Shown here piece by piece: positions 47,724-54,572 of a stretch of DNA of 64,000 nt (its first letter is position 1; every line of letters starts with the position of its first letter). Below the pieces are notes generated by a model that was not told where the DNA came from, searched no databases, and saw only the letters and a list, made by a program, of their open reading frames with translations. This stretch comes from Candidatus Obscuribacteraceae bacterium (GTDB taxonomy: Bacteria; Cyanobacteriota; Vampirovibrionia; Obscuribacterales; Obscuribacteraceae), in NCBI GenBank assembly GCA_044229845.1, contig JBGASG010000001.1, positions 960,001 to 1,024,000 on the forward strand, read 5' to 3'. The translations under genes were made by a program, and so were the position numbers.

Positions 47724-48362
47724 CTATGGGCGCAATCCGTTGAGCACCATCGCTGTGGCCTCTTGTTTGTGCTGCGCCATCATTTCTTTGTTGAGCAAGG
47801 GTTTGCCGTCCCAGAGATGTTTGACGTTTTCACGCGCACAGAAATAGAAGATGCACATGCCGACTATGTTGACGGCGGTGTGCTTTGGATCGGCATCTCG
47901 GAAGAGTTCGGCTTTCACGCCGCGCTCGATGATGTGCGCGATCGTTCCATATAAAGTGATCACGCCGAGCTTGTTGTAGTACTTGCCCTTGTTCTGGATG
48001 GCTTCATACATAAAAATGGCGGATAGCCGGGTGTGCTCGGCCGCACTGTCTATAAATTGATCAATCACCACCCGCAGAGCTTCATCGGCGGGCAGCGACT
48101 CCAGCTCCAGTCCTTGCAGCGCGCGCAGTCGGTCAAGAAAGGCACGTTCCAGAACCGCTTCGTACAGGCCTTCCTTGCTCTTGTAGTAGTAGTGAATCAT
48201 TGCCTTGGTCACGCCTGTGCGTGCGGCGATCGACTCGGTACGCGCCCCTAGGAGTCCGTTCTGGGCGAACTCCTCTTCGGCTGCATCGAGAATGCTGGCC
48301 TTAGTGGCTTCGGCATCGCGTTGGTGGGTGGCTGCTGGTCTTGGCATGGCTGGATGGCTCAC
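47724..48362 (-). CDS. TetR/AcrR family transcriptional regulator
   Basis: ILDAAEEEFAQNG...IAARTGVTKAMIHYYYKSKEGLY helix-turn-helix. Confidence 0.95.
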   Translation of the reverse strand: MSHPAMPRPAATHQRDAEATKASILDAAEEEFAQNGLLGARTESIAARTGVTKAMIHYYYKSKEGLYEAVLERAFLDRLRALQGLELESLPADEALRVVIDQFIDSAAEHTRLSAIFMYEAIQNKGKYYNKLGVITLYGTIAHIIERGVKAELFRDADPKHTAVNIVGMCIFYFCARENVKHLWDGKPLLNKEMMAQHKQEATAMVLNGLRP

Positions 48363-48371
48363 TGGCGCTTA

Positions 48372-48481
48372 ACTTACCATTTAGTAAGTATATCACGGGT
48401 GTCGCCGTTCGGCTTAGTTCTAAACAGGGGCTTGCCATTTGGCGTTTTAAGAGGTAGTATAACTAACAGACTGGTTAGTTA
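48372..48481. promoter_or_regulatory. Divergent tetR/emrA promoter region with two palindromic operator candidates
   Basis: ACTTAC-CATTTA-GTAAGT (48372-48389) and TAACTAAC-AGACTG-GTTAGTTA (48460-48481); TTGCCA, 17 nt, TAGTAT promoter at 48432-48460. Confidence 0.7.
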
Positions 48482-48515
48482 ATAGAATAACCCAGCTTTG
48501 GAAATCCTGTGCATC

Positions 48516-49817
48516 ATGCAAGCTTTAAAAATCCCAACTCCGAATGCCCTGCCCGAACTAAAAGAGATTCTGATTTCGCCGGCGCCGGTGAAGAAACTGG
48601 CGAACAAGCGCAATCTCAAATGGCTCATCGGTGGTTTGGCGGCCGGGGTGTTGGTTACCGGCGGATTGACCTACTGGCATTTTGCTTCCATGTGGGAAGA
48701 AACCGACAATGCCACCATCACCGGTCACGTTCATAACATCTCCTCGCGCGTTGAAGGTGTCGTCACTGATGTGCTCGTCGACGACAATCAGGTAGTTCCG
48801 GCGGGAACGCCGATAGTTCGCCTCGACACTCGCGACTTCCAGACGCAAGTAATGAATGCACAAGCGTCACTCGATCGCGCGCGCAGTCAATTAGATGTTG
48901 CCTCGCAAACGGTTGAGTCCACCGGGACATCAGCCGATGCCGCCACCACCAGCGCTGCCAGCGATTACGCAGACGCAGTGGCCGACGTGGCGCGCGCTCA
49001 GTCAGCCGTCAGCGACGCCAGAGCCGGTGTCGCCATGGCTCAAGCGAAAATGAAACAACAAGAAGCAGAGGTCGTGCGCGCCAAAAATGACTTCCTCAGA
49101 TATAAAGATCTGGAAGCCGAAGGTGCCATCAGCACGCAGCAACTTGATTCGGCCAAGCGTGACTTGGATGTAGCCAACGCTGCCATGACCGGTGCCAAAG
49201 ATAACTACACCCAGTCGGTGACGCGGGTGCAACAAGCCAGCGACAGCGTGAAACAAGCGCAAGCTAAAGTCCTGCGCTCACAGAGCACTGCACAGCAAGC
49301 CAAGTCGCAAGTGCAACAAACAGATGTACGTCGCAAGGAAGTTGCCGTAGCTAAAGCTGCCACCGAGGAGCAAGCTGCATCGCTGCGCTCCGCCCAGCTG
49401 AATCTGTCGTATGCCACCATCGTTGCTCCGGTGGAAGGAACCGTCGGCCGCAAGACAGTGGAAGTAGGACAACGCATCCAAGCCGGGCAGCCTCTCATGG
49501 CGCTCGTCAGCCCTGAGCGTTGGGTAGTTGCCAACTTCAAAGAAACACAACTGGCACGCATGAAGGCAGGACAAGAAGTCGAAGTTGAAGTCGACGCTCT
49601 GCCCGGCGCACACCTGAAAGGAACCCTGGATAGTTTCTCGCCGGCATCTGGTGCCCAGTTTGCCTTATTGCCGCCAGACAACGCGACCGGTAACTTCACC
49701 AAGATCGTTCAGCGGGTTCCGGTGAAAATCCTCCTCAGTAATGAGTCTATGAAGAAGTACGGCACTCGTATCACCCCTGGCATGTCTGTGATCGCCAAAG
49801 TGAGAGTTGCCGACTAG
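48516..49817 (+). CDS. emrA: EmrA/HlyD family membrane fusion protein
   Basis: TDNA, V.DNQ.V..G, ANFKETQL and LLPPDNATGNFTKIVQRVPV motifs. Confidence 0.92.
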   Translation: MQALKIPTPNALPELKEILISPAPVKKLANKRNLKWLIGGLAAGVLVTGGLTYWHFASMWEETDNATITGHVHNISSRVEGVVTDVLVDDNQVVPAGTPIVRLDTRDFQTQVMNAQASLDRARSQLDVASQTVESTGTSADAATTSAASDYADAVADVARAQSAVSDARAGVAMAQAKMKQQEAEVVRAKNDFLRYKDLEAEGAISTQQLDSAKRDLDVANAAMTGAKDNYTQSVTRVQQASDSVKQAQAKVLRSQSTAQQAKSQVQQTDVRRKEVAVAKAATEEQAASLRSAQLNLSYATIVAPVEGTVGRKTVEVGQRIQAGQPLMALVSPERWVVANFKETQLARMKAGQEVEVEVDALPGAHLKGTLDSFSPASGAQFALLPPDNATGNFTKIVQRVPVKILLSNESMKKYGTRITPGMSVIAKVRVAD

Positions 49818-49843
49818 TTCTAAAACTTTTGAGAGCCCGAGTA

Positions 49844-51475
49844 ATGTCAGCCCAATCACAACCGCAATCAAAATCGAATTTGCAAGCTGAAGCACAAGCG
49901 GTGACTAGACCCGATGCCGCCACGCTTGCCGATGCGGTGCCGATGAAAAGTTGGATCGCCGTTTTCGGTGTGGCACTGGGCGCTTTCATGGCGGTGCTCG
50001 ACATTCAGATCACCAACTCGTCCATGGCCGATATTCAGGGCACACTTGGTGCCACTCTTGATGAAGGTTCATGGATCGCCACCTCGTATCTGGTCGCTGA
50101 GATTATGGTGATACCGCTGACAGCTTTGTTTAGCCGCGTCTTCTCAACTCGCCGCTATCTGCTGGCTACGGCCGCGCTTTTCGTTGTGTTCTCTGTTGCC
50201 TGTGCTTTCTCGTGGAACCTGCAAGCGATGATTGTTTTCCGTATGGCTCAGGGCTTCACAGGTGGTGCGCTGATTCCTATGGCAATGACCACAATGATGA
50301 CCCAGCTTCCCAAAGCCAAGCAGCCCATCGGAATGGCAATCTTTGGACTCACTGCGACATTTGCTCCGTCCATCGGACCTGCGCTGGGCGGTTGGTTGAC
50401 CAGCAACTTCGGATGGAAATACATCTTCTTCCTCAACATACTGCCTGGCATCGCCATGATGTCCGCGATTGCTTATTCGTTTCCTAAACAAAAAATGCAG
50501 CTGGAAATTCTCAGGACAGTCGATTGGTTCAGCGTACTGGCAATGGCTGTCGGACTCGGTTCGCTGGAAGTCGTATTGGAAGAAGGCAATCGCAAAGACT
50601 GGTTCGGTTCGCCTCTGATTCTCAATCTGGCAATTGTCGCCGCTATTACGCTGACGTTCTTCCTCTGGCGCCAACTGACCGCCAAGCAACCATTTATCAA
50701 CTTGCGTTTGCTTGGCGAACGAAACTTCGGCGTCGGTGCCACCGCTAACGTTATCCTGGGGATGGGCATGTACGGCTCGATCTACGTGCTGCCGATGTAT
50801 TTGACCCAAATCCAGGGCTACGATGCGCAGCAGATCGGTGGCGTATTGATGTGGATGGGACTGCCTCAATTGTTTATCGTGCCGTTTATTCCTAAGCTGA
50901 TGCAGAAGATCGATCCGCGCATCATGATCGCGGTCGGATTAATCGTTTTCGGCGGCAGCTCTGTTATGAACGCGTTCATGACTGCCGACCACTCAGGCGA
51001 TCAACTGGCTTTTGCCCAGGTGGTGCGCGCGCTGGGTCAGCCGTTGATCATGATTCCGCTCTCGTCTCTGGCGATGTCGCGTATCGCGCCTGAGCAAGCA
51101 GCGTCCGCCTCCGCACTCTTCAATATGCTGCGCAACCTTGGCGGTTCCGTCGGCATTGCCCTGATCTCCACATTCCTGACCCGCCGCGAGCAGTTTCATT
51201 CCAATATCATTGGACAGTCGGTGACGTTGTTTGATCCAGCTACGCAAGATAGGCTGAATCAAATGACGGCCAGCTTCGCTGCTCGCGGCGCGGACATGTG
51301 GACGGCGCATCAACAAGCCTTTGCCATGATCGACCGGCTGGTGCGCCGCGAGTCATTCATCATGGCGTTCAACGATTGTTTCTTCTTTTTTGGCTGTGTC
51401 CTGATAGTTGCCGCCGGCACCGCGTTTATTTTGAAAAAGGCGCAGTCAGGCGGGTCCGCCGCCGGTGCCCATTAA
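49844..51475 (+). CDS. emrB: DHA2 family MFS efflux permease (EmrB-like)
   Basis: FMAVLDIQITN, W..TSYLVAE, FRMAQGFTGG, APSIGPALGGW and RNLGGSVG motifs. Confidence 0.93.
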   Translation: MSAQSQPQSKSNLQAEAQAVTRPDAATLADAVPMKSWIAVFGVALGAFMAVLDIQITNSSMADIQGTLGATLDEGSWIATSYLVAEIMVIPLTALFSRVFSTRRYLLATAALFVVFSVACAFSWNLQAMIVFRMAQGFTGGALIPMAMTTMMTQLPKAKQPIGMAIFGLTATFAPSIGPALGGWLTSNFGWKYIFFLNILPGIAMMSAIAYSFPKQKMQLEILRTVDWFSVLAMAVGLGSLEVVLEEGNRKDWFGSPLILNLAIVAAITLTFFLWRQLTAKQPFINLRLLGERNFGVGATANVILGMGMYGSIYVLPMYLTQIQGYDAQQIGGVLMWMGLPQLFIVPFIPKLMQKIDPRIMIAVGLIVFGGSSVMNAFMTADHSGDQLAFAQVVRALGQPLIMIPLSSLAMSRIAPEQAASASALFNMLRNLGGSVGIALISTFLTRREQFHSNIIGQSVTLFDPATQDRLNQMTASFAARGADMWTAHQQAFAMIDRLVRRESFIMAFNDCFFFFGCVLIVAAGTAFILKKAQSGGSAAGAH

Positions 51476-51703: not shown

Positions 51704-53026
51704 TTACGGTGTCAGGCGGTTGCGGTCGCGTGGAAATAGCGACGCCAGCTTGACGTTTGGCAGACCAAGCAGTTGTTTGGCCAGGCGTTCCAGACCGATC
51801 GCCAGACCGCCGTGTGGTGGCATGCCGTACTTGAAGCACTGCAGGTAGTCGCCGAAGTCGGCAGGGTTCATGCCGCGTGCGGCGATACTGCCGACCAGTT
51901 GCTCGTATTCATGAATACGCTGTCCGCCGGTTGTGATCTCCAATCCGTTGTAGAGCAAGTCGAAACTGTGCGTCATGCCCTCAGCAGTCGGCATGGCGTA
52001 AAACGGACGCACGTCCTTCGGATAACTGGTCACATAAACCAGCGGCACACCTTCAGCGGTTTGGAAATGCTCGCACAAAAGTTTCTCAGCGTCGGCATCG
52101 AGGTCGAGGCTCTCAGCGTCCGCAGGGCGCTTCCACCCAAGTTTTGTGCGCAGCAAAGTGTGCGCCTCTTCCAGAGTCAGCTGCGGTATTTGCGAAAACA
52201 CGGGTACCGTGGCACCCCAGAGCGCTAACTCGTGCTCACAGTTCTCGCGCACCGAGGCAAACATGTGCTGCAGCAGTTTGACCTGCATTGCCATCACATC
52301 TTGCTCGCTCTCGATGAAACCCATCTCAAAGTCCATGCTGATGTATTCATTGAGGTGGCGTGTCGTGTCGTGCTCTTCGGCGCGGTACACTGGTCCGATT
52401 TCGAACACGCGTTCGAACACGCCGACCATCATTTGTTTGTAGAACTGCGGACTCTGGGCAAGAAACGCTTTTTTGCCGAAGTAGTCGACGGCGAACAGCG
52501 CCGCACCGCCCTCGGTGCCGGTGGCGACCAGCTTTGGCGAGTGGATTTCGGTAAATTGCTGCCCGGTGAGAAACTCACGAAAAGCCCGGCAGAACTCGGC
52601 TTCCAGTTTGAAGACGGCGCGCACTTTCTCGGCGCGCAGGGTCAAGGGACGGTAGTCGAGCATCGCGGAGAGCGACAGACTGTCTACCTTGGAAGACTTG
52701 TTGACTTCGACAGGTATGGTTTCACGGGACGCCGAGAGCGGTTCCACGGAGATCAGGTGGATTTCGTTGCTCGCGGGTTTTCCGTTGCTCTGCGCCGCAG
52801 CCACCCTGCCGGTGACGCGGACCGGGGTTTCCAAACCAAGCCCCGACACCTGCGCGACCAGAGCCTCGTTGTCTGCAATCAACTGAATGATGCCTGAGCG
52901 GTCGCGCAGCAGCACGAAGGCAATCTTGCCGAGTTTGCGAATGGCGTGCACGAAACCGCTGAGCGTCACTTCGCTGCCGACGCTCTGCTGGGGTACTTCT
53001 TCGACTAACGTCGCTTGGCTGTTCAT
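51704..53026 (-). CDS. aspS: Non-discriminating (archaeal-type) aspartyl-tRNA(Asp/Asn) synthetase
   Basis: 440 aa, too short to hold the bacterial GAD insert; GFVHAIR, LAQSPQFYKQMM, YRAEEHDTTRHLNEY and YGMPPHGGLAIGLERL motifs. Confidence 0.93.
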   Translation of the reverse strand: MNSQATLVEEVPQQSVGSEVTLSGFVHAIRKLGKIAFVLLRDRSGIIQLIADNEALVAQVSGLGLETPVRVTGRVAAAQSNGKPASNEIHLISVEPLSASRETIPVEVNKSSKVDSLSLSAMLDYRPLTLRAEKVRAVFKLEAEFCRAFREFLTGQQFTEIHSPKLVATGTEGGAALFAVDYFGKKAFLAQSPQFYKQMMVGVFERVFEIGPVYRAEEHDTTRHLNEYISMDFEMGFIESEQDVMAMQVKLLQHMFASVRENCEHELALWGATVPVFSQIPQLTLEEAHTLLRTKLGWKRPADAESLDLDADAEKLLCEHFQTAEGVPLVYVTSYPKDVRPFYAMPTAEGMTHSFDLLYNGLEITTGGQRIHEYEQLVGSIAARGMNPADFGDYLQCFKYGMPPHGGLAIGLERLAKQLLGLPNVKLASLFPRDRNRLTP

Positions 53027-53043
53027 GGTCTTCCTTTATCTCC

Positions 53044-53077
53044 AAAATAAAAAACCGCGAGGCTTGTGCTTCGCGGT
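53044..53077 (-). terminator. Attenuator (intrinsic terminator) in the aspS 5' leader
   Basis: Minus strand ACCGCGA-AGCACAAGCC-UCGCGGU followed by UUUUUAUUUU, ending 17 nt before the aspS ATG. Confidence 0.85.
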
Positions 53078-53105
53078 CCTGACTTGTTTGATGCTTCTTT
53101 GAGAA

Positions 53106-53237
53106 TTAGCGATGCAAACAGTAGGACCGCGAGCGGTCGTTATTGTCAGCATCGTTATTATTAGCGTTAGCCGCCGCAAAACTACCGAAGCTGGCGCTCC
53201 GGGCGTTATTTGCTTTAACTGTGGCTAGTGCTTGCAT
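53106..53237 (-). CDS. Asn/Asp-rich leader peptide of aspS (43 aa)
   Basis: MQALATVKANNARSASFGSFAAANANNNDADNNDRSRSYCLHR; its 3' end contains the antiterminator strand. Confidence 0.8.
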   Translation of the reverse strand: MQALATVKANNARSASFGSFAAANANNNDADNNDRSRSYCLHR

Positions 53238-53246
53238 ACAAGGCGA

Positions 53247-53276
53247 AGGATAATCCCGACCCCCCTGCCGCGTCAA
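53247..53276 (-). promoter_or_regulatory. Sigma70-type promoter for the leader-aspS transcript
   Basis: Minus strand TTGACG, 18 nt, TATCCT; only 9 nt lie between the -10 box and the leader ATG. Confidence 0.6.
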
Positions 53277-53300
53277 CTCATTGTGAATTTCTAAGGCCGC

Positions 53301-54572
53301 GTGTGGGGTATATTGGCTTTCGTGAGTTCGAATAAGCATCTCTACTATGTCACCAATCGCAAGGAGAGCAGCCCCGCTGGTGTCCACGCGGAGCCTGGGA
53401 AAAGCGGGCAGCGGTACAGGTTCTTTGGTCCTCATCGCAGTCAGGACCTTGCGGTCGGACAATTCGGAATCGAAAATGATGAGATCGTACTCACCAATTT
53501 GGCTGGAATCGAGTCCATCGAGATCACTCCTGACTCGCGTGTTGTTGTCTTCGTTCCGGGATACAACACGCGTTTTGCCGACAGTCTGGTGGTCCTAAGT
53601 CAATTACACCAAGCCCTTCTGTCCACGAGCGATCTGGTTTGTATTCTGTTTTCGTGGCCTTCAATGGGGTCTGCGTTCGCGTACATGCAGGATGAATGCT
53701 CCGTCCAGTTCAGTTACCCGCACTTCAAACTGTTGATCGATTCGATTGCGAAGCGATTAAGCAGCCACTCTCAGTTAAGCCTTGTAGGGCACAGTCTCGG
53801 CTGTCAGCTCGTGCATAGATATGTACTCGACAGAACTGCTCGCGAAGGCAAGTCTGCCGGCATGGTAGTTCTCTCTTCGCCTGACATAGACTATCAAACC
53901 GCTACGCTCGAGTCAGAGCGGCTAAAGTTCTCCGCGGGTATAGACTCGGGCTTCATTCTGGTGAGCGACGTGGATGGTCCTCTGGAAGTCTCGCGTTCGC
54001 TGCATGGTTATACGCGGTTGGGAAGACCATCTCTTTCGACGATGCGCAGTCTCTTTTGGGGAACGTTCCGCACCGGATCGCTCACGAACATTTTTTCCAC
54101 CATTGCTCATGTCCCGATATTTCTGATGGAGCAAGCGATCCGCTGGGTGAAATGCGGACTCAAAGACCCAGATCAAGTCTGGCAGGAGCAAAACCAGGGT
54201 AATGGAATCGCTTTTGCGGACAACATCTCGCTGTTCGATTTCACCAGGGCGGATCGCATGCAAAGGCGATTTGGACACACCGTGTGTGTTGATCTGGTGG
54301 CATCGCTTTTGAGTTCCGGAAGCCCACCGGCAGGGTGGGACCAACGGACAATCGTAAAGATACCCGACGAATACGGATATCGAGAATGTTTCCTCCTGCC
54401 GTATTCTCGACACAATCCCTACGGGCAAGATCAGGTGACGCTATTTAGTTACCGCCAATTGATCCCTCCGGCAAATGGACAGCAGCAGCTACATGGGGAG
54501 GCTGGGGGCGGGGTTGTCTTTGGTGACCTTGCTGTACCAGTCGCCGGGGTGGCGGACGACGATGCCGGCTAA
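53301..54572 (+). CDS. DUF900-like alpha/beta hydrolase
   Basis: YYVTNR, VFVPGYN, FSWPS, nucleophile elbow GHSLG, SPDID and RLG motifs; start uncertain. Confidence 0.8.
   Translation: MWGILAFVSSNKHLYYVTNRKESSPAGVHAEPGKSGQRYRFFGPHRSQDLAVGQFGIENDEIVLTNLAGIESIEITPDSRVVVFVPGYNTRFADSLVVLSQLHQALLSTSDLVCILFSWPSMGSAFAYMQDECSVQFSYPHFKLLIDSIAKRLSSHSQLSLVGHSLGCQLVHRYVLDRTAREGKSAGMVVLSSPDIDYQTATLESERLKFSAGIDSGFILVSDVDGPLEVSRSLHGYTRLGRPSLSTMRSLFWGTFRTGSLTNIFSTIAHVPIFLMEQAIRWVKCGLKDPDQVWQEQNQGNGIAFADNISLFDFTRADRMQRRFGHTVCVDLVASLLSSGSPPAGWDQRTIVKIPDEYGYRECFLLPYSRHNPYGQDQVTLFSYRQLIPPANGQQQLHGEAGGGVVFGDLAVPVAGVADDDAG

Follow-up and report, generated by a model that had tools for sequence, protein, structure and literature searches.

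Our data show that the gene for AspRS2, an archaeal/Thermus-type aspartate--tRNA(Asn) ligase in an uncultured Obscuribacteraceae bacterium, is preceded by a short open reading frame rich in Asn and Asp codons and by two alternative hairpins that share one segment, and that this layout recurs before nearly all assessable AspRS2 genes of the order. The element is most likely a ribosome-coupled transcription attenuator that would restrict transcription of AspRS2 to shortages of Asn-tRNA, in the main, or of Asp-tRNA. Positions are those of the window, the whole 64,000-nucleotide stretch of DNA analysed, and all leader features lie on its minus strand.

Anatomy of the leader and its alternative hairpins

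The gene predicted to be regulated encodes an AspRS2 of 440 aa (51704..53026). A predicted sigma-70-type promoter, TTGACG-18-TATCCT (53247..53276), has its -35 hexamer TTGACG at 53276-53271 and its -10 hexamer TATCCT at 53252-53247. It was the sole promoter-like site in a scan of 52500-54000, where 0.5 would be expected by chance, so that the call is weak taken alone; a counterpart lies upstream of the tracts in the family. The leader ORF comprises 43 codons from an ATG at 53237 to a TAA at 53106 (53106..53237). Because the ATG lies only 9 nt downstream of the -10 hexamer, the leader mRNA is likely near-leaderless. The frame stays open upstream as far as a TTG at 53462, but we rejected the resulting 118-codon ORF as incidental, since the congener G001 carries a stop codon directly before the promoter. 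Codons 24-34 (53136..53168) read NANNNDADNND, with six Asn and three Asp codons, and form the candidate control tract; at least eight N/D in 11 codons occur at only 14 stop-free places among the genome's 10.3 million six-frame windows.

Segment 2 (53115..53132), the 5' arm of the antiterminator, lies within the ORF directly past the tract, and segment 3 (53071..53090) is common to the antiterminator and the terminator. The duplex between 53132-53115 and 53090-53071 has a folding energy of -25.5 kcal/mol, and a slightly wider duplex reaches -28.5 kcal/mol, a value attained by 0 of 2000 base shuffles (best -22.6, mean -10.7). The predicted intrinsic terminator (53044..53078) consists of a 3:4 stem pairing 53077-53071 with 53060-53054 (-15.0 kcal/mol) and the U tract UUUUUAUUUU (53053-53044); with a loop of more than 8 nt, it escaped a simple terminator scan of the locus. 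A weaker segment 1:2 hairpin (53125..53138, -5.8 kcal/mol) may serve as a pause site or anti-antiterminator. The 217-nt leader as a whole folds with a z-score of -3.19. The first-pass annotation had described this promoter, this ORF with its codon counts, the 2:3 pairing and a terminator sharing segment 3, and we recovered every one of these parts exactly. Scans of Rfam, Pfam and NCBIfam assigned no family to the leader region, and the Rfam scan gave no match to the T-box (RF00230) in it.

We propose that, while a ribosome is slowed on the AAY and GAY codons, segment 2 would stay accessible and capture segment 3 ahead of the synthesis of segment 4, and that RNA polymerase would then read through into the gene. 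A ribosome that moves past the tract would instead cover segment 2; the 3:4 stem would form, and the transcript would end near 53045. The RNA data are assembled contigs from four of 16 RNA-type runs. One run (X9) gave a single contig at 53016-53255 (depth 8) and none further in the gene; because it runs past both the predicted start and the terminator, it shows neither transcript end. Contigs of a second run (X1) cover 53058-53207 and 52760-53079, spanning the terminator, and the remaining two (X3, X10) contain pieces of the gene only.

On the plus strand, a gene for a DUF900 alpha/beta hydrolase (53301-54572) separates dprA from the leader promoter, overlapping dprA at its 3' end. It looks like a recent insertion, because dprA directly precedes the promoter in G001. 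On the other side, at 47724-51475, a TetR-family regulator divergent from an EmrA/EmrB-type efflux pair forms an ordinary neighbourhood that converges on the 3' end of aspS2.

Conservation, reading frame and the predicted RNA switch

Upstream DNA was recovered for 89 of the 90 AspRS2 genes of the order, leaving out that of genome G073, where the match begins at a contig end. Two of these loci are truncated (L018, L134), two, both in genus g5, are leaderless (L137, L138), and 85 have an N/D tract. Promoter, start codon, N/D tract, antiterminator and terminator are laid out alike in 85 of 87 assessable loci and in 28 of 29 assessable genera. Statistics were computed on 80 distinct leaders from 27 genera, excluding L020, whose leader has an NDDDD tract plus a terminator-like hairpin, and L135, whose contig begins inside the tract. 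In 79 of the 80, the tract has a consensus promoter-like site upstream of it, and TTGAC opens 76 of these 79 sites; the neighbouring genes further upstream differ among genomes. A density of five N/D in 12 codons is not specific alone, as 7 of 29 gatB upstream regions reach five or six, but none of the 29 reaches seven, a density attained or exceeded in 71 of 85 leaders. A covariance model built from 41 leaders found one strong copy in each of 87 of the 107 genomes and none in g5; 84 of these matches precede known AspRS2 genes, and the match in G073 also precedes an AspRS2 start.

An initiation codon sharing the tract's frame, located between promoter and tract with no intervening stop, is present in 79 of 79 leaders, compared with 22 and 27 in the other two frames. 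The counts among genus representatives, given that related leaders are not independent, are 26 versus 9 and 8. Start positions vary, and many starts are GTG or TTG. The control codons vary synonymously (AAT 345, AAC 149, GAT 101, GAC 99), and a strain-level GAT-to-GAC change was seen in an RNA-library contig. The frame bias, the synonymous third positions, the conserved promoter just upstream and the differing upstream genes argue against an untranslated RNA switch that binds a protein or tRNA, and against the terminator of an upstream gene combined with an A-rich repeat. The AAT repeats are indeed of low complexity, and AAT is over-used in the leaders (68% versus 38% in long ORFs). In addition, folding of the window's leader with no ribosome on it predicts an advantage of 6 kcal/mol for the read-through structure, so something other than a ribosome could drive the switch. 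Given also that no Rfam family matches the leader, we consider these untranslated readings very unlikely.

Which amino acid would be sensed by a translated leader can be approached from the composition of the tract. Asn codons dominate at about 2.5:1 (mean 6.1 N vs 2.5 D), N exceeds D in 71 of 81 tracts, and 68 of 80 leaders have Asn runs of three or more. This dominance is what an attenuator sensing Asn alone would have, with the Asp codons being tolerated neighbours of AAY or being kept for RNA pairing; the last codon of the tract belongs to segment 1, and the bacterial-type AspRS, which looks discriminating by one residue, should already cover tRNA-Asp. We hold this alternative to be possible but the less probable one. 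At least one Asp codon precedes the last position in 80 of 80 leaders, and at least two do so in 67, and few codons belong to the other residues that a single step from AAY can reach (D 198 vs S 18, T 4, K 3, I 3, H 1 and Y 1), although defining the tract on N/D inflates this excess. Moreover, some leaders are dominated by Asp, with tracts such as DRDDDN in genus g37 and NDDDD in g18. We moderately favour a leader that would sense Asp as well as Asn. Sensing of queuosine was rejected as a reading, given the near lack of His and Tyr codons in the tracts (1 each).

In an arrest by the nascent peptide, the stall would be set by the peptide and not by tRNA charging. The tails past the tract, however, are 2-17 residues long with no common motif and no RAGP, and the part before the tract is free in length and sequence. 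Translational coupling is countered by the position of the terminator, which in 79 of 80 leaders ends 14-51 nt upstream of the start assigned to aspS2 and so, in the window and as a rule, leaves the ribosome-binding site uncovered. We give arrest or coupling little credence.

We measured covariation in 41 leaders spanning genera, using a structure drawn from the window's sequence. The terminator has 87.6% of its cells paired and 53 double changes, where shuffles give 17.0; the antiterminator has 77.5% paired and likewise 53 double changes, where shuffles give 30.1. For each helix 0 of 500 shuffles match, and both exceed every slid register as well. The signal stems from the flanking pairs, because the CCGC/GCGG core hardly varies. 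Own 2:3 duplexes average -22.9 kcal/mol versus -17.7 kcal/mol across genera, with the own partner being the best in 7 of 27. Terminators are present in 80 of 80 leaders (-10.6 to -27.1 kcal/mol), seven of them with a short U tract (at most five U in the last 10 positions). The 1:2 hairpin beats shuffles in 6 of 27 genus representatives, a weak signal, and genus g21 has 11 leaders in which the pairing of segment 2 is shifted in register.

We then modelled a ribosome on each of the 80 leaders, assuming a footprint of 9 nt past the A site and ending the fold before segment 4. With the ribosome placed 2-6 codons short of the final control codon, the mean upstream pairing of the segment-3 core was 0.92; it was 0.64 when the ribosome stood on that codon and 0.27-0.35 over the three codons that follow, and did not exceed 0.19 further on, compared with 0.52 in shuffles. 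The modelled switch point coincides with the end of the tract, which again argues against an untranslated switch, and 69 of 80 leaders score above 0.5 for this geometry. In five g22 leaders with a 2-residue tail (four of them distinct), upstream pairing persists in the truncated fold while the ribosome sits on the stop codon. When full-length RNAs were folded to equilibrium, 37 of 80 leaders switched, including that of the window (from 0.0-0.3 to 0.9), and the rest favoured the terminator at all ribosome positions. Because only 37 switch at equilibrium, the attenuator model needs co-transcriptional kinetics, and in most leaders control would be kinetic. Kinetic control is usual for attenuators. 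The trp attenuator has two alternative folds of similar stability, according to PMC1183508.

The first-pass annotation had proposed searching orthologues for conserved N/D-rich short ORFs and covarying hairpins. Both are present across the family, and its reading of the element as an attenuator passes these comparative tests in conservation, reading frame, covariation and switch position.

AspRS2 and the routes to Asn-tRNA

The window's AspRS2 scores 543.7 bits against NF003483 (cut-off 353) and 422.9 bits against TIGR00458 (cut-off 368.4), and its best PDB match is T. thermophilus AspRS2 (1n9w, E 1.9e-126). A His in the anticodon domain and a loop Pro are determinants of non-discrimination, and the window's protein has both residues that align with those of Thermus AspRS2 (His27 and the loop Pro). 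In the AspRS2 family as a whole, the position-27 column holds Q 47, H 18, Y 14 and others 8, and the loop is also variable. Because this signature is not kept family-wide, it is from family membership that we infer the enzyme to be non-discriminating, as had been claimed for it.

The window genome (G000) also encodes AsnRS, a bacterial-type AspRS, AsnB and GatA. AspRS2 is therefore a second, spare AspRS and not the main charger of tRNA-Asp or tRNA-Asn. The first-pass annotation's choice of an AspRS as the target holds as to the family and its place directly downstream of the leader, but the gene is a spare copy beside AsnRS and the bacterial-type enzyme. The latter carries Leu at a site that is likewise Leu in E. 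coli but His in the Asp/Asn enzymes of the PDB, which we take to be the mark of a discriminating enzyme. As judged from sequence, AspRS2 is probably the only source of Asp-tRNA(Asn) in the cell. Its product would be Asp-tRNA(Asn) for GatCAB, a backup to AsnRS and AsnB, and it would also add capacity for charging tRNA-Asp. Since AspRS2 is a spare beside these enzymes, the leader likely gates the backup route for Asn-tRNA, by analogy with the T-box before homologues outside the family.

Among the 107 genomes of the order, AspRS2 is found in 90, asnS in 91, asnB in 101, gatA in 98, gatB in 81 and glnS in 84. A leader-like N/D tract is absent before asnB (7 of 13 loci scored), the bacterial-type aspS (7 loci) and asnS (3 loci). 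The 29 gatB upstream regions scored likewise have no leader-type N/D tract, and the gat genes are unlinked to aspS2. Throughout the order (L232-L235), gatB lies behind an ABC-transporter block with putative mlaE/F/D-like genes, and in one genome (G102) a repeat adjoins gatB. Elsewhere in G000 we noted an array of four tRNA-Leu genes (C8:153905-154220) and a pair of tRNA-Asn calls, some 950 bases from each other and identical except at the 5' end (C22:244919-245946).

We found gatB neither in the 88%-complete assembly that contains the window nor in the congener G001. This is probably an assembly gap. GatA is kept, with gatB missing more often than gatA (26 of 107 assemblies lack gatB), and gatB is present in each of the 13 assemblies that consist of no more than about 10 contigs. 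Of 13 gatB-less genomes checked, eight lack the entire 19-kb neighbourhood and five are broken at a contig end, and of three genes found ahead of gatB in four relatives, two have no match in G000. These observations make a gap likelier than a true loss, and the neighbourhood tests point to a gap without proving it. The lack of GlnRS in G000 first argued against loss of gatB as well, an argument weakened by the presence of GlnRS in 5 of 5 other gatB-less genomes.

The leaderless genus g5 has asnS in 0 of 3 genomes and no glnS match, and both of its AspRS2 genes (L137, L138) are without a leader. In a quick tree of 48 rows (midpoint root, careful search unfinished), leader-bearing AspRS2 proteins form one clade (SH-aLRT 95), with the g5 proteins outside it on a long branch. 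We rejected the idea that g5 lost its leader along with AsnRS: because its proteins branch outside the leader-bearing clade, the g5 gene looks like a different, strongly diverged one that has no leader, and g5 is a single lineage. A genus without asnS fits a constitutive need for AspRS2, within the limits of one lineage and a different gene.

Related leaders and comparison with known systems

Five other cognate leaders precede biosynthetic or synthetase genes in G000, and on this sequence evidence attenuation appears to be in wide use in the organism. DAHP synthase is preceded by two W/F/Y-rich leader ORFs in tandem, both followed by a terminator-like hairpin of their own (C1:160800-161200, minus strand; L286); the first shares an ACCGC/GCGGT core with the aspS2 leader and is a weak match of its model. 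An Ile-rich leader with a terminator-like hairpin precedes ileS (C1 near 696000, plus strand). On the minus strand of C3, a Leu-rich leader precedes a leuA-family gene (near 192130), an I/L/V-rich one ilvD (near 190230) and a Met-rich one cystathionine gamma-synthase (near 200350), each with a terminator-like hairpin.

Beyond the family, a T-box lies upstream in 15 of 20 AspRS2 homologue loci scanned (of 74 loci); T-boxes on Asn/Asp synthetase-type genes are covered in PMC2494555. In three Bacillota loci (L152, L154, L155) and two of Paenibacillus (L157, L164), a second short ORF follows the T-box terminator at about 730-860. It has a strong Shine-Dalgarno sequence and up to 11 of 12 D/N codons (five in L154), and it overlaps or abuts the aspS2 start in a different frame; these loci possibly combine a T-box and a D/N translational device in series. 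In Lachnospiraceae/Bacillota (L159, L162, L212), a short ORF with NRDDD lies upstream of aspS2; in both loci examined a terminator-like hairpin comes after it, and L159 has no T-box in the Rfam scan. This is a possible independent Asp-rich attenuator. A sample of 401 genomes of the phylum contained two close AspRS2 genes beyond the family; 27 other inspected loci were rejected as distant (25-32% identity) and look like another synthetase group. In another class of the phylum (family f22; L237, L238), a Shine-Dalgarno motif and a short ORF with DAD or NRDAD precede AspRS2.

On balance, we lean towards a wider reading, in which a two-input attenuator for Asn-tRNA and Asp-tRNA, both products of a non-discriminating synthetase, would be the ancestral, family-wide control of a transamidation backup in Obscuribacterales. 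It would match, with a ribosome as the sensor, what the T-box does for this gene in Bacillota, would belong to a so far undescribed group of classical attenuators in the cyanobacterial phylum's non-photosynthetic branch, and would exemplify an Asn/Asp class with origins in several phyla.

The first-pass annotation had made novelty conditional on a literature check. We found no described Asn/Asp leader attenuator in the literature searched, whose coverage of subscription papers is poor and leaves the main 2010 survey outside it; term look-ups in the main texts of PMC2965389, PMC8632094, PMC11109978, PMC5737381 and PMC7373986 gave none either. The mechanism is a textbook one, which limits surprise; its Asn/Asp specificity, target logic and lineage are apparently undescribed. 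If correct, our model adds Asn and Asp to the amino acids read by classical attenuators, provides a ribosome-based way of keeping a non-discriminating AspRS low unless the indirect Asn route is needed, and places attenuation in the cyanobacterial phylum. For cyanobacteria, PMC4833913 (2016) reports no reliable data for attenuation, a statement that does not concern the window's uncultured branch. The roughly 80 natural leader variants are a ready set for studying how one leader weighs two signals.

The layout is that of the classical trp and his attenuators, in which, as described in PMC1183508, a short ORF of cognate codons is followed by segment 2, exclusive 2:3 and 3:4 pairings and a U tract. 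The same leader-peptide layout is found in leuA of Shewanella and the ilvB uORF of Corynebacterium (PMC2659441 and PMC11109978); in the former source, a Shewanella aspS "tRNA synthetase leader" is listed without a leader peptide. Unlike in these classical systems, the codons here are Asn and Asp, the target is a spare synthetase for tRNA-dependent Asn formation, the 1:2 hairpin is weak and the lineage is Vampirovibrionia. A synthetase attenuator that senses its charged product is known from E. coli pheM-pheST. The cysS uORFC-8-2 of Rhodobacterales is alike in that its leader responds to what the synthetase encoded downstream makes, the charged tRNA (PMC8632094). Both cysS and pheST encode a main synthetase and involve one amino acid, whereas the AspRS2 leader has two codon types and precedes a second-copy enzyme with two potential tRNAs.

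The nearest structures are the AspRS2 enzymes of Thermus and Deinococcus (1n9w, 3kfu). In most of the window's family AspRS2 co-occurs with AsnRS and GlnRS, and AsnB, present in 101 of 107 genomes of the order, has no match over the cut-off in Thermus and Deinococcus, which served as a control. The closest parallel in gene redundancy and induction logic is a T-box system that Saad et al. reportedly described in 2012, with AsnRS, an extra AspRS, GatCAB and AsnB, in which the indirect route is said to be induced by uncharged tRNA. In that T-box-controlled Asn route (the 2012 work cited in PMC4206432) the sensor is a tRNA-binding riboswitch, whereas for the AspRS2 leader we propose that it is the translating ribosome.
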